A stretch of 64,000 nt of DNA from positions 192,001 to 256,000 of the forward strand of contig JAWAKK010000002.1 in the NCBI GenBank assembly GCA_038887515.1, given 5' to 3'. Source of the stretch: Candidatus Nezhaarchaeales archaeon. Its GTDB lineage: Archaea; Thermoproteota; Methanomethylicia; Nezhaarchaeales; WYZ-LMO8. The notes below the pieces were generated by a model that searched no databases, had not been told where the DNA came from, and was given only the letters and a program-made list of their open reading frames with translations. This document shows, piece by piece, positions 21,152 through 62,092 of the stretch; within the stretch, counting starts at the first letter, position 1; the number at the start of each line of letters is the position of its first letter. The position numbers were made by a program, and so were the translations under genes.

Positions 21152-22969
21152 TTGTGCGGGATTTTTGGTTGTACTTCGCTTAAAGAGGGCGTCTCAAAGT
21201 TAATTTACGTTTCTCTGAAAAAGCTAGAGTATAGAGGGTACGATTCTGTAGGCTTGGCAACCACGTATGGCGGGTATATATTTTTAAAGAAGGATCAAGG
21301 AAAGATAGAAGAAGTGGACAACAAGCTCCGTCTCGATACGTTGCCGGGAAGGTGCGGAATAGGACATACTCGATGGGCTACTCACGGTGCGCCTTCGAAG
21401 GAAAACGCTCATCCGCTAACGGATTGCGAAGGTAAAATAGCAGTAGCTCATAACGGAATCATAGAGAACTGTCTAGAGTTACGTAAAAAGCTAGAGCTTG
21501 AAGGTCACAAGCTCCGCTCTAGAACCGATAGTGAAATTATAGCCCATCTGGTAGAGGAACTAATTGGTAAAGGGTTTACATTAAAAGAAGCTGTTAGGCA
21601 GGCGGCGCTAAGCCTAAGGGGCTCCTCGGCCTTCGTAATCATCTCTGCGCTATTGGAGGATACTATTGTCTGTGTCAGGATGGGAAGTCCCTTGGTTATA
21701 GGTCTCTCGCACGACTTCGTGTGTTGTTCATCCGACGTGCAGGCTCTCCCTCAAGAAGTGGAAGGTATCATAATAATGAATGAAGGGGAACTTGCAGTAC
21801 TTACGCCGAAGGCGGTAATTATCGAGGATCTTGAGTCTGGACGCTCACTACCGCTCAGGACCTTGACTAAAGAAAGCATAGTTTATTCAGCTGATAGAGG
21901 AAGCTTTGCCCACTACATGATTAAAGAAATACATGAAGAGCCTCAAGTTGCGTTAAACATCATTAATGCACCCCATCAATTTGTACAGAACCTAGCTAGC
22001 GAACTCCTAAAGTCTGATAGAGTGTACTTAATTGGCTGTGGAACATCATACCACGCTTGCATCTTCGGCTCTTACGTACTGCGCTTTATGGCCGACATCG
22101 ACGCCTACCCTATAGTGGCGTCGGAGTTTAATGGTAATTACATAAATTTAAGAGGCAAAACGGCCGTGCTAGCCATATCTCAGTCCGGAGAAACGGCCGA
22201 CGTATTGCAAGTCTTGAGGTTACTTCAAGGAAAAGACGTCAAGTTGCTAGCCTTAACTAATGTTATGGGGTCTTCGATAACAAGGCTTGTTTCATCATAT
22301 GTAGGGCTCTATGCAGGCCCCGAAATGGGAGTAGCCGCTACTAAGACCTTTCTAGCTCAACTATTAATGCTCACGAGGATAAGCTTAGAGGCCGCAAAGA
22401 TCAAGGGTCTAAATAATGACATCGTTTTAGGCGCTGAACGATTCTTGATTTCCTCGCCAAGGCTTATAGGGCGAGCCGTCAAGGTCAATGAACCAATAGC
22501 GATGAGCATATCAGCGAACCTATCTTTAAAGGATAGTGCCTTCTTCTTAGCAAGAGGCGTGAACATAGTCACAGCCCTTGAAGGAGCCTTAAAACTTAAA
22601 GAGATAAGCTATGTTCATGCTGAGGGCTATCCTGCCGGAGAGTCTAAGCATGGTCCAATAGCTCTCGTAGACAAGGGCTTTCCATGCATTTTCATTTGCC
22701 CCCGCGACGAGACTTACGGTAAGATTGTAGGCAATATAATGGAGATGAAAGCTAGGGGCGCCTTCACAATTTCATGCGTAGAAGAAGGTGATAAGGAGGT
22801 TAAGGAGATTTCAGATAAAATTTTCGTACTTCCCGAGGTAGACGTTAAAATATTAACACCCATACTTCACGTAATACCACTCCAACTTCTAGCTTATTAC
22901 GTTGCCGTTGCAAGAGGATATGATCCCGATAAGCCTCGAAACCTCGCTAAATCTGTTACAGTCCCTTAA
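21152..22969 (+). CDS. glmS: Glucosamine--fructose-6-phosphate aminotransferase
   Basis: MCGIFG, LEYRGYDS, GHTRWATHG, SQSGET, PRNLAKSVT. Confidence 0.97.
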   Translation: MCGIFGCTSLKEGVSKLIYVSLKKLEYRGYDSVGLATTYGGYIFLKKDQGKIEEVDNKLRLDTLPGRCGIGHTRWATHGAPSKENAHPLTDCEGKIAVAHNGIIENCLELRKKLELEGHKLRSRTDSEIIAHLVEELIGKGFTLKEAVRQAALSLRGSSAFVIISALLEDTIVCVRMGSPLVIGLSHDFVCCSSDVQALPQEVEGIIIMNEGELAVLTPKAVIIEDLESGRSLPLRTLTKESIVYSADRGSFAHYMIKEIHEEPQVALNIINAPHQFVQNLASELLKSDRVYLIGCGTSYHACIFGSYVLRFMADIDAYPIVASEFNGNYINLRGKTAVLAISQSGETADVLQVLRLLQGKDVKLLALTNVMGSSITRLVSSYVGLYAGPEMGVAATKTFLAQLLMLTRISLEAAKIKGLNNDIVLGAERFLISSPRLIGRAVKVNEPIAMSISANLSLKDSAFFLARGVNIVTALEGALKLKEISYVHAEGYPAGESKHGPIALVDKGFPCIFICPRDETYGKIVGNIMEMKARGAFTISCVEEGDKEVKEISDKIFVLPEVDVKILTPILHVIPLQLLAYYVAVARGYDPDKPRNLAKSVTVP

Positions 22970-23983
22970 GCCTTCTTAGATCTATTGTATCGAAGACCTC
23001 TGGACCGGTGCTGATTATTGTTATTGGAATCTTTAGTTCTTCTTCAACGTTCTCTATCCATTCCTTAGCTTCACGTGGTAGCTTATCGTATTCTCTAACT
23101 CGTGAAGCTCCGGGGAAGAGCGTGTCTATCCTGGTTATGGCTATTTGGGTTGCGCTGTTAGCCATGACAGCCCTTTTGGCTAATTCAAAGTTAAATGGTG
23201 CAACCCTCCTCTTCCTCCCAGTCACGGTTGCAACTTCTATGAGCCCTAGCCTTTGAGCCTCTTCTTCTGAAAGTTCGCCGGGTAGTGGTCCGCTTCCAAC
23301 CCTAGTCACATAAGATTTAAAGACTACAATAACCTCGTCGACCATCTTAGGACCTATACCCACCTCACTGCAGACGGCTGAAGCAGTTGTATCGCGACTT
23401 GTGACATAAGGATAAGTCCCGTGGTAAAGAGATAGATAGTACCCCTGGGTCCCCTCAAGGAGCACGTTATGACCTTGATCAAGTGCCCTCCATACTAGTG
23501 TAGGCACATCATCAAGATAATCCCTTAGTTCTCCTACATCGCGAGCGAGCCTAGCCACCCTCCTGACTCTATCAACTATTGCGGCTCCAACGCCTTGGCC
23601 CGTCGATCCTATCTTGGACATTAAGTGTTCATCTTCCCGCTCCCTCTTTACATGTTCTTCTTCGATTATGGAGGCTTGTGGGTCTATCTTCAACCTGTCT
23701 TTAGCTTTAGTGAGTTCAAGCTCCCTCATTAAAACGTCGATTCTCAAATTGGCTCCAGCCGCTATGCATAATTCGGCTCGAGGGTTTACAAACCCGCAAG
23801 GTATAATCCTCAACTTGTATTCCTTGTTATTGTACATTACAGTGTGGCCTGCGTTAACCGACCCTGTTCTAACAGCTACTCTGACGTCATCTTTAAGTGC
23901 CAAGTAGGCACATACTTTTCCTTCTAGGGGGCTAAAGCCTTTCCCTCGTCCCCGAAAAAGCCTCCTACAACTACCGTCAGCAA
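22956..23983 (-). CDS. purA: Adenylosuccinate synthetase, intron-containing (exons 23983-23941 and 23923-22956; 336 aa spliced)
   Basis: Exon 1 gives MLTVVVGGFFGDEG; removing a 17-nt BHB intron gives KGKVCAYLALKD..., joining the 315-aa ORF (NAGHT, GSTGQG, EGTQG, YPYVTS, TGRKRR). Confidence 0.93.
23924..23940 (-). other. 17-nt BHB-type intron in purA mRNA
   Basis: mRNA AGGG AA^A GGC UUUA GCC CCCU AG^A; removal restores GDEGKGK. Confidence 0.88.
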
Positions 23984-25074
23984 GCCTCTAACCCCCAGAA
24001 TGGTCCTAAAACCTTATCGTAAACTTCTTTTATAACTCTTAGACCGCTTTTCTTCACACTCTCCGACGAGGTTGTGCTGCCTTCTTCAATTATAGGCAAG
24101 TCTATAAGGTACGCAATTATATCGTACACTCCTCTTGCAAGGCCCGGGCCATATCCTCCTTCAAGCACGAACATTATCTTTTTCGTCACACATTCATCCA
24201 TCATTTTCTTGACGAACTTGGCTACCTTTAGGAAGGAGTTTAATGAAAGGTTCATCGATGTTATCGGGTCATCCTTGTGGGCATCAAATCCGGCTGATAA
24301 CAATAACACTTCCGGTCTATACTCTCTAACGACCCTTTCTACAACTTTATCTAGCGCTACTTCGTAGAGGTCGTCACCTGTAAAAGGAGGTAGCGGAACA
24401 TTAATGTTAAAACCTTTCCCCTCTCCTTCACCGACTTCATCAACAAACCCTGTACCGGGATATGCTGTCCTTCCATCTTGATGCGTACTTATATAGAGAA
24501 CGTTATTGTAGCTGTAGAAAATCTCTTGAGTACCATTTCCGTGGTGACAATCAAAGTCGAAGATTGCTACCTTCTTAAACCCGTACTTGTCGAGTAAATG
24601 CGTTGCTGCTATAGCGATATTGTTAAATATGCAAAAACCTAATGTCGGAGCCCCTAAAGCTGCCCCACTCCTACCGGCGTGGTGTCCTGGAGGCCTCTCT
24701 AAGGTGAAGCAGAAGTCGAAGCCTTCTTCTATCAGTTTCTTGCATCCTAATACTGCTGAACCAGCAGCATAAAGTGCGACTTCAAAACTATCCTTTGATA
24801 CGGGCGTATCCGGATCAAGGTACCTCTTGCCATCTGTAATGGTTCTATCTACCCACTTAATGTAATCAATGTCGTGAACTGCAGCTACTTCTTCTATCGA
24901 TGCCTTAATTGCTCTTTCAACCTTAACTTTAGATAGTACCCCTCTCCCCTTTAGCTCATTAATGACTTCAATGAGCCTTTGCGGCCTCTCAGGATGATGA
25001 GGACCCGTGTCATGCCTCAAAAACACATCATCATATATTATGCAGAGTTTAGAAGTCATTAGTCGAAACACCAC
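23977..25074 (-). CDS. Histone deacetylase family protein
   Basis: HPERPQR, RPPGHHA, GFCIFNN, DFDCHHGNGTQ, SAGFDAH, LEGGY. Confidence 0.95.
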   Translation of the reverse strand: MVFRLMTSKLCIIYDDVFLRHDTGPHHPERPQRLIEVINELKGRGVLSKVKVERAIKASIEEVAAVHDIDYIKWVDRTITDGKRYLDPDTPVSKDSFEVALYAAGSAVLGCKKLIEEGFDFCFTLERPPGHHAGRSGAALGAPTLGFCIFNNIAIAATHLLDKYGFKKVAIFDFDCHHGNGTQEIFYSYNNVLYISTHQDGRTAYPGTGFVDEVGEGEGKGFNINVPLPPFTGDDLYEVALDKVVERVVREYRPEVLLLSAGFDAHKDDPITSMNLSLNSFLKVAKFVKKMMDECVTKKIMFVLEGGYGPGLARGVYDIIAYLIDLPIIEEGSTTSSESVKKSGLRVIKEVYDKVLGPFWGLEAC

Positions 25075-25137
25075 TCGTTTTTAAGCTTTAAACTTTAAAT
25101 AATCTTTTCACATCATTGAGAAGTTGGTGCAAATGAG

Positions 25138-25770
25138 TTGAGCTCTAGAGTTGAACTAAAACCTACGCGAATGGAGCTAATAAATTTAAGGCGTAGAAAG
25201 AGACTCGCCGAAAGAGGTCTTACTCTTCTTAAAGAGAAGCGCGACGCCCTAGTTATGGAGCTGTTGTCATTGGCCAAGGAATACCAGAATGTCATGCTCG
25301 AAGTAAGGGAGAAAATGGAGAAGGCATTAAGCTACCTTGCGCTGGCTAGGGCTGATGTAGGCGTATTTAAACTTAACGAGATAATAGCTACTTTGCGGTC
25401 TCAAGTAGCCATAGAAATTAGGACGAGAAGCATAATGGGGGTCACGACGCCTATGTTTAAAGTTGTACAGAAGGTGGAGACAGACGTTCCGCCATATAGT
25501 CTTCCAAGCACCACTACCTACATAGATGAAGCCGCTAAAGCCTTCAGGGAGTTATTTGTAACGATAATAAGGCTTGCAGAGATTCAAGCAGTAGCCAAAA
25601 GAATAGCTGAAGAGGTCGAAAAAGCCAAGAGGAGGGTCAATGCCCTTGAGCACGTTGTTATACCTATGATCGAGAAAAATATCAAGTTCATAGAACTCTA
25701 TCTAGATGAGCGGGCTCGCGAAGATATTTTTAGGTTAAGGCTTCTCAAGAAGAAGCGTGTAAAGAAGTAG
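25138..25770 (+). CDS. atpD: A/V-type ATP synthase subunit D
   Basis: PTRMELI.L, LLKEKRDAL, RRVNALEHVVIP. Confidence 0.95.
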   Translation: MSSRVELKPTRMELINLRRRKRLAERGLTLLKEKRDALVMELLSLAKEYQNVMLEVREKMEKALSYLALARADVGVFKLNEIIATLRSQVAIEIRTRSIMGVTTPMFKVVQKVETDVPPYSLPSTTTYIDEAAKAFRELFVTIIRLAEIQAVAKRIAEEVEKAKRRVNALEHVVIPMIEKNIKFIELYLDERAREDIFRLRLLKKKRVKK

Positions 25771-25776
25771 TTTTTC

Positions 25777-26139
25777 CTACTTGCTCCTCAGGTACAATAT
25801 TGCTCGTGCTAGATCGCCCTTGGTCGCTTTCAATGCCTTTCTAGCCTCTTCAAGACTTACGCCAGCTTGAGATGCAACTAATTGAACGTCCTCCTCTTGT
25901 ATATTCGGCTCCTCTTCAAGTACTAGAGCTCTTTCTTCAACTTCGCCCGTCACTTGGAAAACCGTTTGATCCCCCACCTTCATGCTAGTAACCTGAGGTT
26001 TCCTTACGACCAGCTCTCTATCTCGAAATTTAAATACGACGCTCTCAACGCCTTCGAGCTGTTCAACTGATATTCCAGCCTTCTTAACTGCTTGCAACAT
26101 CCTCTGTAGCTCTCTCGGGCTTATCCCCCTCACCTTCAA
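25777..26139 (-). CDS. nac: Nascent polypeptide-associated complex protein
   Basis: NAC domain plus UBA: EEDVQLVASQAGVSLEEARKAL...GDLARAI. Confidence 0.93.
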   Translation of the reverse strand: MKVRGISPRELQRMLQAVKKAGISVEQLEGVESVVFKFRDRELVVRKPQVTSMKVGDQTVFQVTGEVEERALVLEEEPNIQEEDVQLVASQAGVSLEEARKALKATKGDLARAILYLRSK

Positions 26140-26611
26140 TCCCCCTCCTAATTTTCACTGCCACGCCTAAATTAAATGCTAGCATTTCGTAACCAGATAG
26201 TATGGCTCGGCCAACAGCCAACAGATCGTCTCTTTCGTCAACTACGAGGACCTCGTCGCCACATCGAATTTCTGGGTCAACTCTAATTACATGCTTCGCA
26301 AAAACGCTCTTCCCTTTTTTTATGAAATCTTTCACTTCCTCTTTAACGACTACCCTAAGCTTGGGTGGAGGGAAGTGCTTCAATAGGAGCTTAGCCCCCT
26401 CAATCGTTAGTGCCAAGAACCCGTCATTCCATCTAACTGTTGCTAGGAGCCTTCCTTCAGAGTCGTATACGTATCGTGGTTTTCCAGTCCTCTTTGAGAC
26501 CTCCACTCTAAGTCCTCTTGAAGCCAGCGCTTCGCCAGCTCCAGCTCCGAACTGGTAATCGGCACGCATCTTCACCGATTCCACTAAAATTTTCTCGCTT
26601 AAGCAGGCCAC
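26084..26611 (-). CDS. PUA-domain protein (TGT C-terminal-like)
   Basis: ADYQFG, GKSVFAKHV..DPEIR.GDEVLVV, GVAVKIR. Confidence 0.88.
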   Translation of the reverse strand: MACLSEKILVESVKMRADYQFGAGAGEALASRGLRVEVSKRTGKPRYVYDSEGRLLATVRWNDGFLALTIEGAKLLLKHFPPPKLRVVVKEEVKDFIKKGKSVFAKHVIRVDPEIRCGDEVLVVDERDDLLAVGRAILSGYEMLAFNLGVAVKIRRGIEGEGDKPERATEDVASS

Positions 26612-26666
26612 AATACATTTTAGCTTAAAGTTGTAGATTAATATCTAGCGTTGCGAGGTTTAGAAA

Positions 26667-27134
26667 ATGTTGTGCGAGCTTTGTGGCAAACCAGTAATGG
26701 GGAAACCAGTTAAAGTTTGGATTGAAGGGGCGCAATTAACGGTTTGTCAACGATGTTCCCGCTATGGTTCTATCGTGAAAACCGGGACCGCAACTACTGT
26801 CCGTCCACAGGTTCAATTGAAGCGTAGAGGGGTAAAACTAGGCGTCGAGAACCTAGTTTTGGTTAATAATTACAGTGCCCTCATCCGTCAAGCGAGGGAG
26901 AGCATGGGCTTAACGCAAGCCGATTTAGCGCGTTTGATAGGCGAGAAAGAGTCCATAATACGTAGACTTGAGGGTGGTCGTATGGCTCCTACACTGGAGC
27001 TTGCTAGAAAGCTCGAGAAGCAATTGAAGATAAGGCTATACGAAGAGGTACACGAAACCCAAGAAGTGCCTAGGCCTCAGAGCTTTCAGCTAACTTTAGG
27101 TGATGTAGCAGTAATAAAGGAACGGAACGAGTAA
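26667..27134 (+). CDS. mbf1: Multiprotein bridging factor aMBF1
   Basis: CELCG...VC..C Zn ribbon, HTH, TLGD motif. Confidence 0.93.
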   Translation: MLCELCGKPVMGKPVKVWIEGAQLTVCQRCSRYGSIVKTGTATTVRPQVQLKRRGVKLGVENLVLVNNYSALIRQARESMGLTQADLARLIGEKESIIRRLEGGRMAPTLELARKLEKQLKIRLYEEVHETQEVPRPQSFQLTLGDVAVIKERNE

Positions 27135-27152
27135 ACCCCCTTTATCTGCCAA

Positions 27153-28262
27153 CTAGAATTGTTGTTCAACAATTTCAACTTTCTCGATTATTTTTTTAAG
27201 AAGGAAGCTTACGTTGACGCCCTTCCTAGCGCTGATGGGCACGATGTCGCATTGAGGTGCCAAGTCCTTTATTAATTTTAACGATTTTTCAAGTCGTGAA
27301 TCTCCTATTAAGTCTATCTTGTTGGCAGCTATTATTACGGGCTTGTTGTCGCCTGCTATCTCAGAGATTATCGACAGCGAAGTCGTAAGCTTCCTCTCAA
27401 TTTTTGAGGCAGTCTCGGAAGAATCTATCAACAACGTTACTACGTCAGAGAGCCTTAACTCTACAAGCGTTGCGTGGAACGCATCAAGTATTAAGTGCGG
27501 CATTTCATCGATGAATCCGAGAGAATCTACAACTATGAAGTCCTTACCTTGTGCATTAACTCTCCTAGCGCAAGTCTCGAGTGTTGTGAAGGGCCCGAGA
27601 CCCGTCACCTTGCCCTCCTTAGTTAGGAGGTTAAATAAGGTGGTCTTACCCGACTGAGTGTAACCCGTTAATGTAACTATCGGTAAACTTATCTCCTTAC
27701 GTTGAAAGACTAATTTTTCCTGCCTCTTCTTCAATTCTTCCAGCTTATCTTCTATAAGTTTGATTCTCCTTCGGGCAAAGGAAAGGTAAGCCTTATAAGG
27801 ATAGCCTCCAAGCGACCCGAAACCCATTTTCTCGCTACCAAAGCCCTTTAACCTGACGAGCTCTCGAGCCCAAGGCAATGTATACCTTAGCCTAGCGAGC
27901 TCTATCTGAAGCTTTGCCTCCGAAGTAGAAGCCCTCTTATCGAAGATGTCCAGGATCAACAGTACCCTATCCAAGATGTTCACATCGAGGCCTAACTCCT
28001 TTTGTAGCCTAAAGTATTGTCCGGGCTTTAATTCGTTAGCGAAAACTACGGTCTTTACGCCATACCTTTTTAGCCTTTCCTTTAGTTCCTGAAGCTTTCC
28101 CGGTCCTATTAGGAACCCAGCGTGAGGCCTTTCCCTTATCTGGATTACCTTGTCGACAACTATGAAGCCTCTGTTCCTCGCTAGCTCCTCGACTTCCTGA
28201 AGCCTGAAGTCATCATTTCTCTGGAAAACTCCAATGATTATAGTCTTCTCCAAGTCCGTCAC
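27153..28262 (-). CDS. hflX: GTPase HflX
   Basis: LILDIF..RA...EAKLQIELA, GYTQSGKTTLFN, NKID, ISA. Confidence 0.92.
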   Translation of the reverse strand: MTDLEKTIIIGVFQRNDDFRLQEVEELARNRGFIVVDKVIQIRERPHAGFLIGPGKLQELKERLKRYGVKTVVFANELKPGQYFRLQKELGLDVNILDRVLLILDIFDKRASTSEAKLQIELARLRYTLPWARELVRLKGFGSEKMGFGSLGGYPYKAYLSFARRRIKLIEDKLEELKKRQEKLVFQRKEISLPIVTLTGYTQSGKTTLFNLLTKEGKVTGLGPFTTLETCARRVNAQGKDFIVVDSLGFIDEMPHLILDAFHATLVELRLSDVVTLLIDSSETASKIERKLTTSLSIISEIAGDNKPVIIAANKIDLIGDSRLEKSLKLIKDLAPQCDIVPISARKGVNVSFLLKKIIEKVEIVEQQF

Positions 28263-28792
28263 CTTAAGATCTTGACCTTTTTGCCTCTAGGGCTGGGTTC
28301 GATTTCAATCCTTCCACCCTCAAACTTGAAGTTAAATTCTACTCCATTGTAGAACCAGTCGAGAAACACGGCTACAGCTGCTACTTCGCTATGTGGTTGA
28401 TTTGTTACGGAAACGTTAAAGTCTGCTACTTCGTAGAAGTATTTAGGGACTTTAGGCCCTCCAACAAGCACCATTAGCCTTTCCTTACGTCTAATCTCCT
28501 CTATGATTTGGGGGAGGGGGATGCCGTACATGGTTAAATGTACTATGCAGAAGCCCTCTTCCTTCGCCCCCTTTATGACTTTGTTAATATCGATCCCGGT
28601 CTTCACTACAAATTCTCCGCCGAACATTCTATTTACTTGAATAACCTTCTGCTCCAACTTTTCATCTTTCCCATCAAACCATATCTCGCGGGCCCCAAAA
28701 GCTCTAGCGACAAGCGCCAAGTGCGTACTAACTCTTTTATCTCGAAGGGGTCTATGACCATACCTTACTATCACTATTTTTGGTCGGCACAT
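28259..28792 (-). CDS. trm56: tRNA (cytidine56-2'-O)-methyltransferase
   Basis: GHRPLRDKRVSTH, VHLTMYG, NQPHSEVAA. Confidence 0.95.
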   Translation of the reverse strand: MCRPKIVIVRYGHRPLRDKRVSTHLALVARAFGAREIWFDGKDEKLEQKVIQVNRMFGGEFVVKTGIDINKVIKGAKEEGFCIVHLTMYGIPLPQIIEEIRRKERLMVLVGGPKVPKYFYEVADFNVSVTNQPHSEVAAVAVFLDWFYNGVEFNFKFEGGRIEIEPSPRGKKVKILR

Positions 28793-28860
28793 CGGTTATT
28801 AATTTAATAAGCATTTTTTTAAACTTGCTAGGGGCATTATACCTGGGTGGCAGAGAATTC

Positions 28861-29388
28861 ATGGTTTCGGAGCCCTCAGAGCAATACGATAAAGAGTTGA
28901 CAAACGTACTATTGAAGCTGATTGCAGTACTTTGTGGCAAAGACGCCATCGAAGTAGTCAAAGTGTTACTTAACGAGAAGGAGATGAGTGACGAGATACT
29001 AGCCGAGAAAACGGGTATGAGACTTAACCAAGTTCGACGAATCCTCTACGACCTTCTGGACAAGCACGTCGTGACTTACCAGAGAGGGATAGATGAAGAA
29101 AGGGGTTATTACGTGTACACTTGGTCTCTGAATAGGGACGGCCTAAAGGAGATAGTGAAGGAGAGAAAGAGGCTAGTCTTAGAGAGACTGCGCGAGAGAA
29201 TTCGATACGAGGAGCAGAACATGTTCTTCGTTTGTCCCAACAGTTGTACTGGTAGGATGCCCTTTGATAAGGCTTTGGATCAACAGTTTAAATGCTTGCG
29301 TTGTGGCGCAGTACTGCAAAGCTTCGATAACACCAAGATGATTGAGAAGTTAAGGGCAAAAATAGAGGCGTTAGAGAAGGATCCTTAA
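28861..29388 (+). CDS. tfe: Transcription factor E (alpha)
   Basis: wHTH (DEILAEKTG...VRRILY.L), YVYTW, C..C...FKCLRCG. Confidence 0.92.
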   Translation: MVSEPSEQYDKELTNVLLKLIAVLCGKDAIEVVKVLLNEKEMSDEILAEKTGMRLNQVRRILYDLLDKHVVTYQRGIDEERGYYVYTWSLNRDGLKEIVKERKRLVLERLRERIRYEEQNMFFVCPNSCTGRMPFDKALDQQFKCLRCGAVLQSFDNTKMIEKLRAKIEALEKDP

Positions 29389-29486
29389 GCGTAGTTACGA
29401 TGTAGAGTTACCTCCTAGAGAGCTTAAAGGACAAGATACGTAAGTTTTATCTTACCTTAGGGGTAGAACCAATCCTTGTGGGTTTT

Positions 29487-31176
29487 ATGAAATACATTTT
29501 CATTACAGGAGGTGTTTTATCAAGCGTAGGTAAGGGGGCCGTGACTGCTTCGATAGGCAAGATGCTCCAGGTTAGAGGCTTTTCTGTAACGGCAATAAAG
29601 ATAGACCCATAGGCCTTAGGGGCCGGGTAAACATAAACGTTGATGCTGGAACAATGAACCCATAGGCTCTGAGCTGGAGGCTTAGAGCCGGGTATATATG
29701 CATGGCGAGGTCTTCGTGACGGAGGATGGCGGCGAGGTAGACCTAGATCTCGGTCACTATGAGCGTTTTCTCGATATAGACCTATCAAAGGACAACAACA
29801 TTACGACTGGACAAGTGTACATGGTGGTCATAGAGGCCGAGAGGAGGGGGAAGTACCTCGGCAAGTGCGTACAAATAATACCTCACATAACCGACGAGGT
29901 GAAGAGGAGGATAAGGTTAGTAGCTCAGAAGAGCAACGTGGACGTGACGCTCGTAGAATGTGGAGGCACAACGGGGGACATAGAGGGACTCCCCTTCCTT
30001 GAGGCTATAAGGCAAATGAGACTTGAAGAGGGCTTTTCGAACACGCTCTTTGTTCATGTAGCCTTAGTTCCAATATTGGAAGTAACTGGAGAATTTAAGA
30101 CGAAACCTCTACAACACAGCGTCCAAGAGCTTAGACGCATAGGTATACAGCCCGACATCGTAGTGGCAAGGTGTAAGCAGCCGCTAGACGATGAAGCCAA
30201 GAAGAAAATAGCGCTTTACAGCAACGTCCCTGAAGAGGCGGTGTTCACGTCTTACGATGTGGACTGCATATACGAGCTTCCAATAATACTTGATGGACAG
30301 GGAATGGGCGCTTACATATGTAAGCGGCTTACGCTAGATGGATGTAAAGCCGACTGGTCTTCGTGGAGGGAGATAGTTGAGAGGTATAGAAGTTTTAAGT
30401 ACGAAGTCGAAGTATGCATGTGCGGTAAGTACACGAAGCTAAAGGACTCTTACATAAGCATAATAGAGGCCTTAAAGCATGCGGGCGCAGCCCTTGAAAC
30501 TAAGGTTAACATGACATGGCTCGAGGCAACAACGTTCGAACAAGGAGAGGGCATACCTCGAGAGTTTCAGGATATTTTGAGTTCCTGTGATGGCATAATA
30601 GTACTGCCGGGCTTTGGGGCCCGTGGGGCAGAAGGTAAGATTAAGGTCATCAGATACGCAAGGGAAAACAAGGTACCGTTCCTGGGCATATGCTTTGGAA
30701 TGCAACTGGCAATTGTAGAGTTTGCACGAAACGTTGTAGGTCTCAAAGAAGCAAACACAACAGAACTTGATCCGTCAACGTACCACCCGGTTGTTGACCT
30801 CCTACCGGAACAGCACTACGTTAAGGAAGTAGGTGGTACTATGAGACTCGGGGCTCAGGCAACCGTGCTTGAACCCGGAACGAAAGTCTACGAGCTTTAT
30901 GGAAGGCCGATAATATTTGAAAGGCATAGGCATAGGTACGAGGTCAACCCGACCTACTGGTCTGTACTTCAAAGCCACGGTTTGGTCTTCTCCGGATATA
31001 GCATTGATAAACGGAGGGTGGAGTTCATAGAGCTCAGGGACCACCCATTCTTTGTTGCAACTCAATCGCACCCAGAGTTCAAGTCGAGGCCCAATAGACC
31101 CTCACCCATATATTACGGCTTCGTGAAGGCCTGCCTCGAGCATAGGCTTAAGAGATTATCAGCTCCGAAATGCTGA
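29487..31176 (+). CDS. pyrG: CTP synthase with two introns (exons 29487-29610, 29631-29663, 29696-31176; 545 aa spliced)
   Basis: Exon 1 [17 protein letters not shown]...KIDP; exon 2 [11 protein letters not shown]; exon 3 [12 protein letters not shown]...GICFGMQ...HPEF. Confidence 0.95.
29611..29630 (+). other. 20-nt BHB-type intron 1 in pyrG mRNA
   Basis: ACCC AU^A GGCC UUAGG GGCC GGGU AA^A; removal gives GAC CCA UAC AUA AAC (DPYIN). Confidence 0.9.
29664..29695 (+). other. 32-nt BHB-type intron 2 in pyrG mRNA
   Basis: ACCC AU^A GGCUCUGAGC UGGAG GCUUAGAGCC GGGU AU^A; removal gives AAC CCA UAU AUG CAU (NPYMH). Confidence 0.9.
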
Positions 31177-31186
31177 TGGTCAAAGG

Positions 31187-33688
31187 CTATGAACGCTTGA
31201 ACGAAGCATAAGCTTCTCGCATCGCTTCTACGAACCTCCTCGTAGCCTCTTCGGGGTTTGAAGACCTTGTTATCGCTGAGCCTACAATTATTATCTTGCA
31301 ACCACTTTTGACCAATTCTCTTATGTGCTCAAGCCTAACTCCGCCGGCTACAGCGACGGGTACCTTCACGGAATTGACTACTTCCTCAACGAGCTTTATC
31401 TTCCTAGTTACGTCCCTCTCCCTCATTTGCGTACTTATGCCCATATGCACGCATATTATATCGCATCCCAACTTCTCAACCTCCTTTGCCCTGGCGAGTG
31501 GATCCTGTACATTTATCAGGTCACACATTATCTTGACGTTGTACTTCCTAGCAGCACCTACAGCATCTTTAATAGTGTAGTCGTCGGTAGCGCCCAACAC
31601 CGTAACTACATCAGCCCCAGCTTCGGCTGCAAGCTCCACTTCGAGCCAACCCGTGTCAAAGGTTTTGAGGTCGGCTACTATAGTAGCATAAGGGAACCTC
31701 CTTCTAAACTCCTTCACTGCTTCTAGGCCAGCGGACTTTATGAGTGGGGTCCCAACCTCGATGATCTCGGCTCCTCCTCTATAGCAGGCCTCGGCTATGC
31801 TTAGCCCATCTTTCATATACCTTTCATCTATTGCTACCTGTAGCTTGGGCCCCGTGTAGAGGGGCTCGAGACCTAACTGCTGGAGCTTCTTGTCTGTGGG
31901 TACTCCGTGATAGTTCCAGCCTCTAATAGCATAATAAGAATCGATTAATCTCGTTAGGTCGACAACTTCTCCCTTGGATGCCCCCTCTCTCAACTTTTCA
32001 TTTAAGAAGCGTAGCGGCAGAGCGTCGTGGCTTCTATCGAAACCCTCTCTGGCGTTGAAGAGCCTTTCCAAGTTGTATATCCTCTCTCCTATCTTGTAGA
32101 ACTCCTCTTCGTCAACGTAGAAACCAGTTGCTGTTGTTAGTAGCCTCGCGTAATGGGTTGGCTCGTAAGCCAGCGTCGAGAATAAGGCTAGCATTGTAAA
32201 TTTGCACATTATCAACGAGTCTATTACGGCCGAGACGTCCTGCATCCTCTTGACGAGCTCTGCCTTACCCTCATAGGACAGAGGATCTATGTACTTGGGG
32301 ACGCCAAGGATCTCGCTGATCACGACGTAGGCCCTTAAGTGGCACCCTCCTCTATTAGAAGTTGCGTAAGCTAACGCCATCCCTTTAGCTCCTCGAGGAT
32401 CGTAAGCTGGTAGCTCTAGACCCTTTACGTGGGCTGCTATGTCTTCGGCGTTAAGCATCTTTGATATTCGGCTAACGCCTTCGCCCACGATTTTACCTAG
32501 ACCTCTCCTATACGCTGTATCGACTATAACCTTTAGTAAGGAGTCCGAATTGCCAAAATTGAGTTTTATGTTCACTTCGCTAAGCTTCTCTAATAGTCCC
32601 TTCTCATAACACTCCATTAAGAAGCCTACGGTGTTCCCCAGCGAAATCGTATCAAGACCCAATTTATTGCATAAGTCGTTTGCTCGAGCTATGACGTTAA
32701 TATCCGATATACCGCAATTCGGCCCTAAAGCCCATACACTTTCGTATTCTGGGCCCGAGGATATGACTTCCTTCCCATCAACAGTGTACTTCACTAAGCG
32801 GCCGCACGCTATTGGACATCCGTAACATGCCGTCCTCTTCACGAGCATTACTTCAGTTATCTTCTCTCCGCAGACTTCTTCTGCTTTATCGTAGAAGCCT
32901 CGCGTAAAGTTGTAGGAAGGAAAGACGCCTGCCCTATTCATCAGGTGCACTAGGAATGCCGTGCCGTAGCGCCCTAAGCTATCTCCGGTAATCGGATTCC
33001 CCCTTAACACGTCGAGCGTCTTCCTAACTTCTTCATTGAAAGCCTTTGGATTAGCTACTTTAACTTCGCCGGTCCCCTTAACTGCTATAGCCTTTAAATT
33101 CTTGGATCCCATGACTGCGCCTAGGCCACCCCTACCCGCGGCCCTGTGTTTATCGCTTATGATGCAAGCAATCTTTACGAGGTTTTCGCCAGCTGGACCA
33201 ATACAGCAAACCTTAACGTCCTCCAGCTTTAAATCTCTCTTTATTTCCTCTTCCGTAGCATCTGTTTCAAGACCCCAAATCTTACTTGCATCTCGTAGCT
33301 CGACTTTTCCGTCAGCAACGAATAGGTATACGGGGCTAACGCTCTTTCCTCTAACTATTATTCCATCGAAGCCAGCTTTCTTCAGCTCAGGTCCCCATGA
33401 CCCTCCGCACTGAGAGTCAAAGATTGTGCCGGTCAAAGGTGACTTCGAGGATACAGCAAATCGACCTGATGTAGGCGCCCTTGTCCCAGTCAAGGGCCCA
33501 GTCATAAACACTAGGATGTTTTCCTCATCTAGAGGGTTAGTACCTGGCCTTAACGAGTCGAAGAGGAACTTCGCCGAGTATCCTCGGCCGCCCACGTACT
33601 TCATAGCTATATCCCAGTTGAGATCTACGATGGTCACGTCGCCACTAGACAAATCTGCATCTAGTATTTTGCCTGTATAGCCGCTCAA
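31187..33688 (-). CDS. Tungsten aldehyde:ferredoxin oxidoreductase fused to C-terminal 3-hexulose-6-phosphate synthase domain
   Basis: AOR motifs KSPLTG, GRGGLGAVMGSKNLKAI, CYGCPIAC, GPEYE, RGGCH; the last ~220 aa have LQVAID, EVGTPLIK, ADLKTFDTG, VAGG. Confidence 0.9.
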   Translation of the reverse strand: MSGYTGKILDADLSSGDVTIVDLNWDIAMKYVGGRGYSAKFLFDSLRPGTNPLDEENILVFMTGPLTGTRAPTSGRFAVSSKSPLTGTIFDSQCGGSWGPELKKAGFDGIIVRGKSVSPVYLFVADGKVELRDASKIWGLETDATEEEIKRDLKLEDVKVCCIGPAGENLVKIACIISDKHRAAGRGGLGAVMGSKNLKAIAVKGTGEVKVANPKAFNEEVRKTLDVLRGNPITGDSLGRYGTAFLVHLMNRAGVFPSYNFTRGFYDKAEEVCGEKITEVMLVKRTACYGCPIACGRLVKYTVDGKEVISSGPEYESVWALGPNCGISDINVIARANDLCNKLGLDTISLGNTVGFLMECYEKGLLEKLSEVNIKLNFGNSDSLLKVIVDTAYRRGLGKIVGEGVSRISKMLNAEDIAAHVKGLELPAYDPRGAKGMALAYATSNRGGCHLRAYVVISEILGVPKYIDPLSYEGKAELVKRMQDVSAVIDSLIMCKFTMLALFSTLAYEPTHYARLLTTATGFYVDEEEFYKIGERIYNLERLFNAREGFDRSHDALPLRFLNEKLREGASKGEVVDLTRLIDSYYAIRGWNYHGVPTDKKLQQLGLEPLYTGPKLQVAIDERYMKDGLSIAEACYRGGAEIIEVGTPLIKSAGLEAVKEFRRRFPYATIVADLKTFDTGWLEVELAAEAGADVVTVLGATDDYTIKDAVGAARKYNVKIMCDLINVQDPLARAKEVEKLGCDIICVHMGISTQMRERDVTRKIKLVEEVVNSVKVPVAVAGGVRLEHIRELVKSGCKIIIVGSAITRSSNPEEATRRFVEAMREAYASFKRS

Positions 33689-46958: not shown

Positions 46959-48809
46959 ATGGAGGGCAGTAGAGAAGAAGTTGTATTGATGTTGGGGAAC
47001 GAGGCAATAGCTAGAGGAGCTATTGAGGGAGACGTCAAGGTGGCTACGGCATACCCAGGTACTCCTTCGACGGAGATAGTTGAGACCCTTGCCTCCCTAG
47101 CTAAGAGCTACGACCTATACGTAGAGTGGAGCGTTAACGAGAAGGTAGCGTTCGAGGTCGCATTAGCAGCTTCGTACTGCGGATTAAGGTCTCTTACAGC
47201 CATGAAGCACGTAGGCTTAAACGTGGCCTCCGATGCACTTTTCTCCTCGGCCTATACGGGTGTCAGGGGCGGCTTCGTTATAGTATCGGCCGACGACCCG
47301 AGCTGCCATAGCTCTCAAAACGAACAGGACAACAGGATCTACGGAGTCCACGCTTACTTGCCTGTAGTCGAGCCAAGTTCCCCCCAAGAAGCAAAGGACA
47401 TGACTATATACGCCCTTGAGGTGTCTGAGAGGTATGGAGCCCCCATTATCTTAAGGACTACAACGAGACTAAGCCACGCGAGGGGTCCGGTGAAGCTAGG
47501 TCCTGTAAATAGGTCGAAGAAGACTGGCTCATTCGAAAAGAACCCTGAAAAGTACGTCTGCCTTCCAGCTAACGCTAGACGTATGAGGCTAGAGGCCATA
47601 AAAAGACTGAAGGATATCGAGGAGGAATTCAATAGGTCTAAGTTCAACGTCACAGAAGGGAACTCAAAATTAGGGATAATAGCTTGTGGTCTAGCTTACG
47701 CTCACGTACTTGAAGCCCTCGATAACTTAAACTTAAGCTGTAGGCCCTCAATCCTGAAGCTCTCTACAATACATCCGCTCCCCAAAGCTCTCATCAAAGC
47801 CTTCTTAGACGGCAAGGAGAAGGTCCTCGTAGTCGAAGAACTTGAACCCCTAGTGGAGCTACAAGTCAAGGCCCTGTGCCACGACTTGAAGCTGAACGTT
47901 GAAGTTCATGGAAAAGACTTCATCCCACTTGCTGGAGAGTTAACGCCTTCAAGGGTCCTGAAGGGAGTAGCATCTTTCCTAGGCCTGGACTTCGAGTTGC
48001 TGGACTTCAAGCCAAAGCTTCAGCCGCCGCCAAGGCCTCCAATACTCTGCGCTGGCTGTCCCCATAGGAACACCTTCTACGCCATAAAGATAGCAGCTAA
48101 GAGGGCGGGGGTCGAGGCAGTGTACCCAAGCGACATCGGTTGCTACACGTTGGGCTACTACCCGCCCTTCGAGCTTGTAGACACGACGATCTGTATGGGA
48201 GCCGGCGTGGGCTTATCATGCGGCTTCGCAAAATTCGCTGGTAAGGTTGTGATAGCGACCGTAGGTGAATCGACTTTCTACCACGCTTGCATACCAGCCC
48301 TTATAAACGCGGTACACAACCCTTCAAGCTTCGTGCTGGTAGTCCTCGATAACAACCTTACTGCAATGACCGGCGGCCAACCTAGCCCGGCTACGGGCGT
48401 AAACGCAATGGGCCGGCAAGTAAAGTTGGTACGTCCAGAGGATTTAGCTAGGGCTTGTGGAGTCGAGTTCTGTAAGACCGTGGATCCGTACGACGTCGAC
48501 TCGACGATATCCAGCATAGTTGAAGCCATAGAGTACGTTAAGAAGGGCCTAGGACCGGCAGTGGTGGTCGCTAGGAGGATGTGCTCCCTAGCCCTCCTTA
48601 GGGAGCATAGGCTTGGGAAGGTAAGGCTGGAGAAGAGGGCGGTAGACCAAGACAAGTGTAGGGGCTGCTACGCCTGCATAAAACTTGTAGGTTGCCCAGC
48701 CTTGGTCCCAAGGGACTGGAAGGTCGTAATAGACGATGCCACCTGTACCGGGTGCGGGCTATGCGAACGCGCTTGTCCATATAGAGCTATTGTGGCGGTG
48801 AAACAGTGA
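46959..48809 (+). CDS. iorA: Indolepyruvate:ferredoxin oxidoreductase alpha
   Basis: GNEAIARG, YPGTPSTE, MKHVGLNVA, SSQNEQD, CAGCPHR, two ferredoxin motifs. Confidence 0.95.
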   Translation: MEGSREEVVLMLGNEAIARGAIEGDVKVATAYPGTPSTEIVETLASLAKSYDLYVEWSVNEKVAFEVALAASYCGLRSLTAMKHVGLNVASDALFSSAYTGVRGGFVIVSADDPSCHSSQNEQDNRIYGVHAYLPVVEPSSPQEAKDMTIYALEVSERYGAPIILRTTTRLSHARGPVKLGPVNRSKKTGSFEKNPEKYVCLPANARRMRLEAIKRLKDIEEEFNRSKFNVTEGNSKLGIIACGLAYAHVLEALDNLNLSCRPSILKLSTIHPLPKALIKAFLDGKEKVLVVEELEPLVELQVKALCHDLKLNVEVHGKDFIPLAGELTPSRVLKGVASFLGLDFELLDFKPKLQPPPRPPILCAGCPHRNTFYAIKIAAKRAGVEAVYPSDIGCYTLGYYPPFELVDTTICMGAGVGLSCGFAKFAGKVVIATVGESTFYHACIPALINAVHNPSSFVLVVLDNNLTAMTGGQPSPATGVNAMGRQVKLVRPEDLARACGVEFCKTVDPYDVDSTISSIVEAIEYVKKGLGPAVVVARRMCSLALLREHRLGKVRLEKRAVDQDKCRGCYACIKLVGCPALVPRDWKVVIDDATCTGCGLCERACPYRAIVAVKQ

Positions 48810-49405
48810 AGCGGGTCGACGTGGTCATCTCGGGTATAGGAGGCCAGGGAGTTCTAACGTTGACGTCGCTACTTGGAAGAGCTGCCATACTCGAAGGATA
48901 TGACGTGAAGATCTCAGAGGTTCACGGTATGGCTCAGAGAGGTGGCGCAGTCGTGTGTCACGTGAAGATCGGGAAAATCGTGAACTCGCCACTAGTAATG
49001 GAAGGCTCAGCCGACGTACTGCTATCCCTCGAGCTGTCCGAGACGATTAGGGCTCTCAACTTCTTGAAGCCTAGGGGCGTTGTGGTTATGAGTAAGAGCG
49101 CTTTCCCACCACCTCTATCAACGATAATGGGCTATCGATACCCGAGCTTGGAGGAGGTAATCGAGGAACTTAGGGGGGTTGCAGGGGAGGTGTACGTGGT
49201 GGATGCCCATGAAATCGCTAGGAACATTGGCGCACCGCTATCAGCAAACATAGTGTTGTTGGGTGCTGCTTGGGCTACTGGCAGGTTAATGTTGAGCGGA
49301 TCCTCGATCTTGAAGGCAATAAACTCTGCGTTTAAGAAAGAGGTAGCGGAGATGAACGTAAAGACGTTCGAAGAAGGAGTGAGGATAGTTAGGAAGCTAC
49401 TCTAG
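48806..49405 (+). CDS. iorB: Indolepyruvate:ferredoxin oxidoreductase beta
   Basis: GIGGQG, SEVHGMAQRGG. Confidence 0.95.
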   Translation: MKRVDVVISGIGGQGVLTLTSLLGRAAILEGYDVKISEVHGMAQRGGAVVCHVKIGKIVNSPLVMEGSADVLLSLELSETIRALNFLKPRGVVVMSKSAFPPPLSTIMGYRYPSLEEVIEELRGVAGEVYVVDAHEIARNIGAPLSANIVLLGAAWATGRLMLSGSSILKAINSAFKKEVAEMNVKTFEEGVRIVRKLL

Positions 49406-60760: not shown

Positions 60761-62092
60761 ATGAGGACCCTAATACACAATTGTAGAATTTACGCAGATG
60801 GTAGGGTAGTTGAGAATTGCTACTTGCTTGTAGATGCACCCTTCATATCCGACCTTGGAGTAGACGATGTAACTGTAAGCTCCTACGACGTCAAACTGAA
60901 CGCTCAAGGGAGGCTTCTGATCCCAGGGTTAATAGACGTTCACGTACACCTAAGGGATCAACAACTCTCGTACAAGGAGGACTTTAGGAGTGGAACTGCC
61001 AGTGCAGCACTTGGAGGTGTAACTTCGGTAATAGATATGCCCAACAACCTTCCACCCACCGACACACCATCAAGACTAATCGAGAGGATCAACTTAGCTA
61101 AAGAAAGGATCTTAGCGAACGTTGGATTCGCCTGCAAGCCATCACTAAACCACGAAGTCAACATAGAGTTAGCTAGGGCTGGGGCTATAGCCTTCAAGGT
61201 CTTTGTCTACGAATACATGAATTGTGGGACGATAGACCTCTATTCCATAGATAACGTAATGTCCTCTATCTCCAAGGTCAACAGGGTCTTAATGTTGCAC
61301 TGCAACGTAAAATCGTCGTTTCCGGAGGCCCTTGAGCTCGCGAAGAAGAAAAACATGGCTAAGCTCTGTAGAGTTGAAAAGAAGTTGACCGAAAATGTCT
61401 TGAGCATTGCGAAGGCACATGGAGTTAAGCTACACTTCTGTCACGTTAGCAGCCCAAAAGCTGCTGAGGTTATTAACTTACAGAGGGGCTCTATTCATGC
61501 AACATGTGAAGCAACAATACACCACTTATTCCTAGACTACACGGTTCTCGAGAAGTTTGGTTCGCTTGCTCACGTCGATCCACCACTCAAAAGTAAGTTT
61601 ACGGCTCGCCTGCTCTTCGACAAGCTCAGGAGAGGGGTAATAGATATGGTAGTCAGCGACCACGCTCCTCACGCACTCGCTGAAAAGTGTGGAGAAGACC
61701 CTAAGCCGGGATTTCCAAATCTACAGCTCATGATGCCGATGCTAATGACTCAAGTTAAGAGGGGTAGGTTGACCTTAGACTTCGTAGTGGAAAGGGGCTC
61801 TGCAAAGCCCGCCGAGATATTTGGAGTAGAGAAGAGGGGAGCTTTAAGGAAGGGGTACTATGCTGACTTAGTAGAGTTGGACTTAAAGAGGAGACTGAAG
61901 GTTAAGAGCGAGCTACTAGTTTCAAAGGCTAAGTATACGCCGTTCGAGGGTATGACTTTGGTAGGAGTACCAGTTAGAACTTACGTTAACGGCTTGTGCG
62001 TTAACGACGACTATACTATAGTTGGGAGAGGCGGAGAGGGAACAATACTCCTTCCTGGTGATGCGTGTGGCGTCGGAAAAGCTTCTGCTTGA
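60761..62092 (+). CDS. pyrC: Dihydroorotase
   Basis: PGLIDVHVHLRD, DMPNN.P, HFCHVS, SDHAPH, YTPFEG. Confidence 0.9.
   Translation: MRTLIHNCRIYADGRVVENCYLLVDAPFISDLGVDDVTVSSYDVKLNAQGRLLIPGLIDVHVHLRDQQLSYKEDFRSGTASAALGGVTSVIDMPNNLPPTDTPSRLIERINLAKERILANVGFACKPSLNHEVNIELARAGAIAFKVFVYEYMNCGTIDLYSIDNVMSSISKVNRVLMLHCNVKSSFPEALELAKKKNMAKLCRVEKKLTENVLSIAKAHGVKLHFCHVSSPKAAEVINLQRGSIHATCEATIHHLFLDYTVLEKFGSLAHVDPPLKSKFTARLLFDKLRRGVIDMVVSDHAPHALAEKCGEDPKPGFPNLQLMMPMLMTQVKRGRLTLDFVVERGSAKPAEIFGVEKRGALRKGYYADLVELDLKRRLKVKSELLVSKAKYTPFEGMTLVGVPVRTYVNGLCVNDDYTIVGRGGEGTILLPGDACGVGKASA

Follow-up and report, generated by a model that had tools for sequence, protein, structure and literature searches.

How are pyrG and purA, the genes for CTP synthase and adenylosuccinate synthetase, expressed in an archaeon in which the reading frames of both genes are broken? 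The question is raised by a stretch of 64,000 nucleotides (the window, positions 192001-256000 of contig C2) from the genome of a Candidatus Nezhaarchaeales archaeon, which comprises 1.29 Mb in 9 contigs. Two small inserts are located in pyrG and one in purA, with lengths of 20, 32 and 17 nt. They had been described in an earlier note, which was made from the sequence of this DNA alone, and the description turned out to be correct to the base. It is proposed here, with a probability of roughly 0.9, that the three inserts are relaxed introns of the bulge-helix-bulge (BHB) type in the pyrG and purA mRNAs, which would be spliced by the endonuclease EndA and the ligase RtcB.

The pyrG gene is found in pieces (Table 1). 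A stretch of 41 codons (29487-29609, ending with ...AIKIDP) runs into a TAG stop codon, and the next long open reading frame (ORF) starts only at 29698. The relatives start at the aligned ATG, and a GTG at 29478, which is also in frame and open, is an alternative start. The sequence ACCCATA is present in two copies (29605 and 29658), each of which is followed by a hairpin and then by GGGTAAA (29625) or GGGTATA (29690). When both inserts were excised, a single open frame of 545 codons was obtained, and two Tyr codons were assembled across the junctions. On the NCBIfam profile for CTP synthase, which has 534 positions, exon 1 covers positions 3-43 and exon 3 covers positions 57-530, and the 13 missing positions are those of exon 2 and the split codons. 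It had been predicted that such genes would be annotated as truncated. Indeed, public gene calls contain an N-terminally truncated ORF of 492-504 amino acids that is named "CTP synthase"; the respective cluster has 38 members, and most of the 15 listed members fall into this size range.

The situation in purA, which is encoded on the other strand, is very similar. The exon partner of the helix is AGGG at 23946-23943, and the full motif reads AGGG AAA GGCTTTAGCC CCCT AGA. Excision of the 17 nt restored the motif GDEG-K-GK and an open frame of 336 codons. The large ORF alone corresponds to positions 23-334 of the 337 positions of the NCBIfam profile for the archaeal adenylosuccinate synthetase. 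The relatives have ATG or TTG at the position that is aligned to the purA start. At 23977-23983 the TTG start overlaps the TGA stop codon of an upstream deacetylase-like gene (TTGCTGA), which suggests that the two genes are co-transcribed. A search of the genome yielded only one match for pyrG and only one for purA, and thus no second copy of either gene.

Table 1. Exons, predicted introns and intron elements. Positions refer to the window for pyrG and purA and to the contigs for all other genes; "profile" denotes the positions matched by the pieces left and right of the predicted intron.
Feature	Position	Strand	Description
pyrG exon 1	29487-29610	+	41 codons and first base of a split Tyr codon
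pyrG intron 1	29611-29630	+	20 nt; A, hairpin GGCCTTAGGGGCC, GGGT, AA
pyrG intron 1, 5' elements	29605-29608; 29609-29611; 29612-29624		H ACCC; bulge ATA; hairpin GGCCTTAGGGGCC
pyrG intron 1, 3' elements	29625-29628; 29629-29631	+	H' GGGT; bulge AAA
pyrG exon 2	29631-29663	+	33-nt micro-exon; completes Tyr, ends with first base of the next Tyr codon
pyrG intron 2	29664-29695	+	32 nt; A, 25-nt hairpin GGCTCTGAGC-TGGAG-GCTTAGAGCC, GGGT, AT
pyrG intron 2, elements	29658-29661; 29665-29689; 29690-29693		H ACCC, followed by bulge ATA; hairpin; H' GGGT, followed by bulge ATA
pyrG exon 3	29696-31176	+	remainder of the split Tyr codon, then MHGEVF... to stop
purA exon 1	23941-23983	-	TTG start, LTVVVGGFFGDEG, then first base of a split Lys codon
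purA intron	23924-23940	-	17 nt; A, hairpin GGCTTTAGCC, CCCT, AG
purA exon 2	22956-23923	-	remainder of the Lys codon, GKVCAYLALKDD... to stop
aIF2-gamma intron	C2:24144-24175	+	32 nt; profile left 3-96, right 97-411 of 412
uS5 intron	C1:3238-3267	-	30 nt; profile left 4-66, right 67-208 of 213
MtnA-like isomerase intron	C1:10133-10162	-	30 nt; profile left 2-155, right 157-337 of 339
aIF5B intron	C2:21722-21750	+	29 nt; profile left 5-44, right 45-591 of 598
cbf5 intron	C2:333915-333935	+	21 nt; profile left 4-66, right 68-320 of 323
hypD candidate intron	C3:12273-12294	-	22 nt; junction HVCG|THEW; right piece from position 43 of 372

The three inserts share a common architecture, and all of the elements that had been described for them were recovered. 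A central helix of 4 bp, ACCC:GGGT in pyrG (twice) and AGGG:CCCT in purA, is formed between the exon and the intron, and its 5' strand carries a true bulge of 3 nt. It is combined with an intron hairpin (h') of 3-10 bp, and a second 3-nt element is located directly 3' of the central helix. Each of the introns starts with AGGC, contains TTAG and has a hairpin that is closed with GCC, and an in-frame TAG remains whenever one of them stays unspliced. Cuts after the second base of each bulge rebuild the frame and the invariant residues of both genes. The minimum-energy fold predicted with ViennaRNA consists of helix, 3-nt bulge and hairpin in all three cases, and the z-scores in comparison with shuffled sequences were -1.66 and -3.93 for pyrG introns 1 and 2, respectively, and -0.01 for the purA intron. 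The outer helix between the exons (h) had been characterized as weak or absent; it was measured to have 0-1 bp in all three cases, and the 3' side is open in the minimum-energy fold. The strict hBHBh' motif has both outer helices, and because the exon-exon helix is missing here, the motif represents the relaxed HBh' form (central helix H, bulge B, intron hairpin h').

Self-splicing was considered as well. The core of a group I or group II ribozyme comprises well over a hundred bases with conserved domains. The inserts have 17-32 nt, and a search of both strands of 22900-31200 against Rfam yielded no match at E <= 1, so that a ribozyme core was not recognized.

The structure was then formulated as a rule and applied to a set of 41 genomes (G000 and 40 relatives). 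The exon motif was used as seed, the hairpin with the longest stem and a 3' flank that pairs with the exon was chosen, and the cuts were placed after base 2 of each bulge. The pyrG gene was found in 39 genomes, and its 5' region was read in all of them and, in addition, in one record that is titled Bathyarchaeia. As they stand, 21 of these 40 sequences are broken. After application of the rule all 40 were open, and the 19 uninterrupted sequences had remained untouched. The 21 interrupted genes contain 31 predicted introns of 19-33 nt, which belong to all three length classes modulo 3. The window's family has both pyrG introns in 10 of 10 genomes, with lengths of 19, 19, 19, 20, 20, 20, 20, 21, 22 and 27 nt for intron 1 and of 30, 31, 31, 31, 32, 32, 32, 32, 33 and 33 nt for intron 2, and the removal of intron 1 restores DPYINVD in the relatives. 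The purA gene was also found in 39 genomes, and 19 of them have an intron of 16, 17, 18, 22, 28 or 30 nt at the same place. The rule restored GDEGKGK in all 19 interrupted purA genes. Apparent stops inside the purA matches of four relatives turned out to be natural stop codons.

As the lengths of orthologous inserts do not differ by multiples of three and the frame is nevertheless kept, translation through the insert is excluded. The earlier observation that all introns are in phase 1 and have a length of 2 modulo 3 is true for the three introns of the window. It cannot be generalized, because the relatives cover all length classes and the other introns of this genome are found in phases 0, 1 and 2; both regularities are coincidences of this genome.

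The length data also bear on a second way to express the genes, namely that the inserts remain in the mRNA and the ribosome copes with them by frameshifting, stop-codon read-through or hopping over the hairpin. The stop codon directly follows the last sense codon and is itself followed by a stable hairpin, an arrangement reminiscent of the site at which ribosomes take off in phage T4 gene 60, and transcription and translation are coupled in archaea. However, with inserts of all length classes modulo 3 in pyrG as well as in purA, there is no constant frame offset of the kind expected for a slippery site, and each species would need a different recoding event. In addition, matching take-off and landing codons, which are characteristic for bypassing, were not found at the inserts, and the inserts divide the codons of the conserved Tyr (two in pyrG) and Lys (one in purA), which come into being only when the RNA is joined. 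What has been conserved is the helix between exon and intron together with its 3-nt bulges, and this is the motif of the endonuclease. Recoding is thus left with a slim chance.

The mode of sequence change among the 10 family genomes reveals which frame is under selection. The micro-exon of pyrG has seven variable columns, and all seven coincide with third codon positions of the spliced frame. Its invariant third positions belong to Met, which has a single codon, to the Tyr codon at the 3' splice site of intron 1, and to codons for Asn and Pro from which the helix and the bulge of intron 2 are built. Exon 1 of pyrG has 59 variable columns, 39 of which are third positions.

This pattern is difficult to reconcile with two further explanations. 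The first is that the genes are decaying pseudogenes with small insertions in an organism that takes up nucleotides or uses other enzymes. It would fit to the facts that unspliced pyrG and purA are both broken by UAG and that the genome is small. Yet all 10 family genomes have the insertions at the same sites, the changes in the flanking exons are synonymous almost without exception, and insertions or deletions within the inserts never disturb the frame that is given by the structural rule. Furthermore, inserts of the same type are present in the genes for aIF2-gamma, aIF5B and uS5, which cannot be dispensable, so that decay is hardly credible. The second explanation, split genes with pieces that are expressed as separate polypeptides and then assemble, could refer to pyrG exon 3, which has an in-frame ATG at its beginning and is annotated as a separate gene in public sets. 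It does not account for a 33-nt micro-exon that lacks a start codon and is nevertheless under strict amino-acid selection. The exon 1 peptides of purA and pyrG would have only 14-41 residues and comprise half a nucleotide-binding loop, and the split lies inside codons. Separate polypeptides are therefore regarded as highly improbable.

Covariation within the introns points in the direction of a conserved structure. The named structure is paired in 97.8% (intron 1) and 96.4% (intron 2) of the cells, in comparison to 15-60% when the partners were slid against each other, and the central helix is kept in 95-97.5% of the cells among the 10 relatives. Two pairs have changed on both sides in each of the pyrG introns. 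With sequences that are so closely related the covariation is modest, and the frame test was given more weight.

The sequences of the relatives also allow to judge whether the inserts could be artefacts of assembly or sequencing. The window stems from a metagenome bin that is not perfectly clean, as contigs C5-C9 have an aberrant G+C content (0.50-0.63 versus 0.44). However, the same inserts recur in nine further genomes of the family and in records under different names, and there they have substitutions and indels of their own. A separate contig assembly of DNA run X1 spans the whole 8.3 kb in one piece with a depth of about 20 and 0 differences; it may represent the same sample and is independent only as an assembly. 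An artefact can practically be dismissed. The same run contains contigs of other organisms in which the residues of the micro-exon are joined straight to the MHGE codons (window position 29698), and hence intron-free relatives of pyrG share the habitat.

Splicing of this kind would require specific enzymes, and candidate genes for both steps were found in the genome. Two matches to PF01974 (EndA) exceed the cut-off. One of them (C1:132415-132999, 195 codons) matches fused models in their C-terminal, catalytic repeat, and its retained His and Lys-Lys context is probably catalytic. The other one (C3:63667-64233, 189 codons) corresponds to the N-terminal repeat and has a weak alignment to models of a "subunit beta". 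The predicted arrangement is thus a two-subunit EndA of the crenarchaeal type, which is reported to be one of only two EndA types that cut non-canonical introns (PMC5829648). RtcB is represented by one match with 600.8 bits over the full length of the profile, in an open frame of 492 codons without stops. ARAGORN predicted 46 tRNA genes, 18 of them with introns of 5-80 nt, and the 13 that were inspected had 11-55 nt; the intron borders given by this program are unreliable. Some of the tRNA introns are small G+C hairpins that resemble the mRNA inserts. A tRNA-Gly and a tRNA-Leu gene flank the MtnA-like gene, and a tRNA-Thr gene follows cbf5. The five smallest contigs (C5-C9, 6.6-12 kb), which have a G+C content of 0.50-0.63 in comparison to 0.44-0.45 elsewhere, may be mis-binned.

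Based on the anatomy of the inserts, the following course of events is conceivable. The upstream exon would pair, through its last bases (ACCC or AGGG), with a 4-nt stretch close to the 3' end of the intron, and this helix would stack on the G+C-rich intron hairpin across the 3-nt bulge, with the second 3-nt stretch following the helix. The two-subunit EndA would then cut after the second base of each 3-nt element, and RtcB would join the exons, so that the split Tyr codon is rebuilt twice in pyrG and the split Lys codon once in purA. On an unspliced RNA the ribosome would meet UAG at once, and no active enzyme would be made. Cleavage and ligation are steps that we infer, as would be any function of the introns beyond being tolerated. 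The earlier note had proposed BHB introns in the mRNAs of several essential genes and their removal by EndA and RtcB. This proposal gains support from all comparative tests that were run: from the restoration of the frame in 21 of 21 pyrG and 19 of 19 purA genes, from the third-position variation of the micro-exon, from the compensatory changes in the hairpins, from cbf5 as a control (see below), and from the presence of the enzymes.

Two metatranscriptome runs of the same study, of which about 3% each was read, gave 0 reads on 22900-31200, a result that counts neither for nor against splicing. For an enrichment of Methanonezhaarchaeia, over 98% of the reads have been assigned to the cultured strain (PMC12700198). 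Several points weigh against splicing of pyrG and purA. The relatives are kin, so that 10 of 10 genomes are not ten independent observations. The purA intron has a hairpin of only 3 bp, and its stability is no better than that of shuffled sequence at 37 C (z = -0.01), and the organism is from a hot spring. The second 3-nt element lacks a closing exon-exon helix (0-1 bp), and the proposed 3' cut would therefore depend on how broad the specificity of the two-subunit EndA is, which has been reported to be high in breadth for this enzyme type. Lastly, the bare motif is as common in the genome as a decoy.

The last point was quantified in several scans. A genome-wide search for the pattern, which had been suggested as a check, proved to be uninformative, as the compact BHB-like motif was found 18,877 times and a decoy with a reversed 3' strand of the helix 18,639 times. 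Additional restrictions did not yield a clear signal: 7275 real versus 7254 decoy hits were counted for a loose BHB motif combined with the joining of ORFs, 159 versus 116 for bulges of the type ANA, 1366 versus 1454 for compact hairpins that join ORFs, 65 versus 64 for a scan with a codon-usage score at a threshold of 0.2, and 2536 versus 2391 for relaxed hairpins of up to 110 nt. As the motif is as frequent as the decoy, structure alone proves nothing. What makes the inserts significant is that frame and invariant residues are restored exactly and that relatives conserve them. Motif counts were therefore not used as evidence.

For the identification of further introns in the genome, compact motifs were ranked by hairpin quality, candidates were picked from the tops of the lists, and their junction peptides were inspected. 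Homology was tested by comparing the pieces on either side of each junction with NCBIfam, each on its own and without joining them, and the presence of introns in relatives was tested for pyrG, purA and aIF2-gamma. Predicted introns were found in the genes for aIF2-gamma, aIF5B, uS5, an MtnA-like isomerase and Cbf5, and a probable one in hypD (Table 1); the 49-residue left piece of hypD had no family match in NCBIfam. The profile separates the two pieces of each of the first five genes to the residue, and for aIF2-gamma, aIF5B, uS5 and the isomerase the contiguous coordinates were taken as proof of an intron. "Several essential genes" was thus an understatement, as aIF2-gamma, aIF5B, uS5 and the MtnA-like gene are interrupted as well, and probably also hypD. 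The intron in the aIF2-gamma gene was found in 10 of 10 family genomes with a length of 31-35 nt, its removal restores DCPGHE|MLMATML, and its stem exhibits a compensatory change from TTGCACG/CGTGCAA to TCGCATG/CATGCGA. It is absent, as judged from the length of the open frame, from 30 other genomes with a full-length match.

The cbf5 gene served as a positive control. The rule places its intron in phase 1 in the codon for the catalytic Asp of GTLDP, and the boundary that has been published for experimentally spliced crenarchaeal cbf5 introns is at the same position (PMC2738675). The classical cbf5 intron therefore also exists in this Nezhaarchaeales-like lineage.

The outer helix, as read by eye, has about 6 bp in aIF5B (gttggg/cccaac), 3 bp in uS5 and 3-4 bp in hypD, and thus ranges from none to about 6 bp across the introns of the genome. 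All nine introns, including that of hypD, lie within the first 46% of the respective profiles and in codons of motifs, namely P-loops, GTPase switch regions, the catalytic Asp, THCN and CGxHE. Taken together, the genome of 1.29 Mb is predicted to have at least eight, and probably nine, introns in eight genes, and since perfect short hairpins were required in the scan, this number is a lower bound. The list of host genes also affects the proposal that obligatory splicing couples the synthesis of CTP and AMP to the processing of stable RNAs. Introns are also predicted in genes for translation factors and a ribosomal protein, in cbf5 and in a gene for hydrogenase maturation. With host genes that are so varied, the nucleotide genes are not special, and the coupling is unsupported.

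A number of candidates were rejected. At C2:44395-44424 an ABC ATPase is followed by a separate gene. The candidates at C2:157389-157448, C2:159654-159675, C1:228713-228731, C1:538511, C4:18162 and C2:17106 are junctions of neighboring genes, because the right peptide begins with a start codon or a known N-terminus, and neighboring genes were also found at window positions 48756-48832 and 62030-62132. C1:3042-3064 lies inside the already open frame of uS5. The candidate at C2:5897-5917 belongs to a remnant of a short-chain-dehydrogenase-like gene and has no intron. This remnant (C2:5897-6042, 44 codons, ...NTIAPGPTETPG...) has stops on both sides and looks decayed.

The distribution of the introns beyond the window's family is patchy. 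Three other families (5 of 5, 4 of 4 and 1 of 1 genomes) have a pyrG gene without an intron at the two sites of the window and with one intron at a third site, which is located in G-K-G codons. It has the form GGGG AAA hairpin CCCY ARA GGT and a length of 21-28 nt (L012-L015, L020 and L051-L055), and the same is true for L086. No pyrG intron was found in four families with 1, 4, 12 and 2 genomes. The purA intron is present in 10 of 10 genomes of the window's family and in 9 of 11 examined genomes of one other family. Five genomes of one genus of family f5 have a purA intron of 28 nt. Presence or absence in related metagenome-assembled genomes (MAGs) had been named as a check, and the outcome was that pyrG and purA introns are present in every genome of the family and have a patchy occurrence elsewhere.

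Records with names in public databases were inspected at 80 pyrG loci, and 79 of them were examined; L157 was left out, because the match starts at the edge of the locus. A strict test for a contiguous N-terminus was passed by 62 loci, nine more proved contiguous when inspected and have a stop codon upstream of their start, and two were too short upstream. Four loci are Nezhaarchaeales-like and have both introns. These are the nearest named records, with 86-88% identity over exon 3, and they are titled as MAGs of Candidatus Nezhaarchaeota, Nezhaarchaeales, Methanomethylicota or "Nitrososphaerota". One record titled Culexmicrobium has an intron at the G-K-G site. In one record titled Bathyarchaeia (L090:1390-1512) an intron of 21 nt is located at the DP|Y site, in the arrangement ACCC ATA GGCTGGAAACAGCC GGGG AAA and with an exon helix and bulge (ACCC ATA) identical to those of pyrG in the window. 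No intron was found in the remaining pyrG loci titled Bathyarchaeia that had a readable 5' region. The predicted introns are thus conserved across the Nezhaarchaeales-like family, and other sites are occupied in neighboring families. The best reading of these data is that mRNA splicing by EndA and RtcB would be widespread in the Nezhaarchaeales/Methanomethylicia group.

It had been speculated in the earlier note that related introns may have spread. Parts of the data are suggestive of this, in that the same site sequence is used in different genes and the distribution is patchy; they do not go beyond suggesting it. The site GGGGAA|AGG, which encodes G-K-G, has an intron in purA of this family and of part of another one, and three further families have one there in pyrG. 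Within pyrG, introns are found at two copies of the site ACCCAT|A, 53 nt apart, and they share helix, bulge and closing pairs; the record titled Bathyarchaeia has an intron at one such site. Sister families differ in intron occupancy. It is tempting to think of a mobile population of micro-introns that enter short conserved RNA sites, or persist only there, so that the most conserved motif codons of core genes would have been colonized several times independently. This idea is tentative and has somewhat less than an even chance, and the site patterns fit either repeated insertion at favored sites or ancient introns that were lost many times. If it were true, archaea would have a spreading class of mRNA introns that are spliced by protein enzymes, and this would mirror, in living cells, how introns once began to spread into coding genes. 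The recurrence of identical sites would offer a tractable system for how protein-spliced introns enter coding genes.

Splicing of archaeal mRNAs by the tRNA endonuclease has so far been treated as a curiosity. If the introns described here are spliced, the expression of central metabolism and translation in this lineage would depend on the action of EndA and RtcB on mRNA. Gene callers truncate or break such genes, as exemplified by a CTP synthase without its ATP-binding N-terminus, and pathway reconstructions and completeness estimates are therefore biased for these uncultured archaea.

One of the known systems is the unconventional cytoplasmic splicing of HAC1 and XBP1 in eukaryotes. It makes use of the endonuclease Ire1, not of EndA, and it is regulatory and switched by stress. 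No sign of a regulatory role was found for the introns described here. Common features are that an mRNA is spliced by protein enzymes at small stem-loops, that the removal of a short intron shifts the frame, and that ligation in animals is performed by RtcB, for which a role in XBP-1 splicing has been reported (PMC8718801).

Another one is the HVO_1309 mRNA of Haloferax volcanii, an archaeal mRNA that is also processed at a BHB by EndA (PMC10485636, PMC7714728). However, this case stands alone, in a euryarchaeon whose EndA is homodimeric, whereas a set of introns in conserved enzyme cores is predicted here. The closest counterpart is the crenarchaeal cbf5 intron of Desulfurococcales and Sulfolobales, which is likewise short, located in a coding sequence and bordered by a relaxed BHB motif (PMC2738675). 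The lengths of Sulfolobales cbf5 introns are 22, 23 and 31 nt in the table rows available to us (PMC2738675). In both cases the lineages have a two-subunit EndA, and the codon of an invariant residue is disrupted. In contrast to the cbf5 case, pyrG, with two introns only 33 nt apart and a micro-exon, and purA are affected here, together with four or five further genes in one genome, and the lineage is Nezhaarchaeales/Methanomethylicia-like.

In the accessible text of the 2009 paper no gene besides cbf5 was confirmed, and predictions in a Sulfolobus virus and in Sulfolobus genomes were listed as unconfirmed (PMC2738675). The available part of a 2023 review names only two spliced archaeal mRNAs, those of cbf5 and HVO_1309, and states that more are likely to be found (PMC10485636). 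A 2026 review of non-canonical splicing mentions archaea for tRNA only, as far as its accessible part is concerned. A search of open full text, which covers neither subscription journals nor supplements, yielded no report of introns in pyrG or purA, or of mRNA introns in Nezhaarchaeota, Methanomethylicia or Culexarchaeia. Within the literature searched, archaeal mRNA introns of the cbf5 kind are thus undescribed at this scale, with two per gene, in eight genes and in several families.

The second close relationship is that to the introns of archaeal pre-tRNAs. Intron transposition has occurred among the tRNA genes of Thermoproteales, and sequence-related copies at several sites are a feature that the mRNA introns described here have in common with pre-tRNA introns. 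Further similarities to pre-tRNA introns with relaxed HBh' motifs at non-canonical positions are the size range, the geometry of helix, bulge and hairpin, and the presumed enzymes (PMC5829648, PMC3241643). A difference is that the exon strand of the central helix consists of codons for conserved residues. The exons are protein-coding, and therefore the precision of the predicted splicing, unlike that of a pre-tRNA, is checked by the reading frame.

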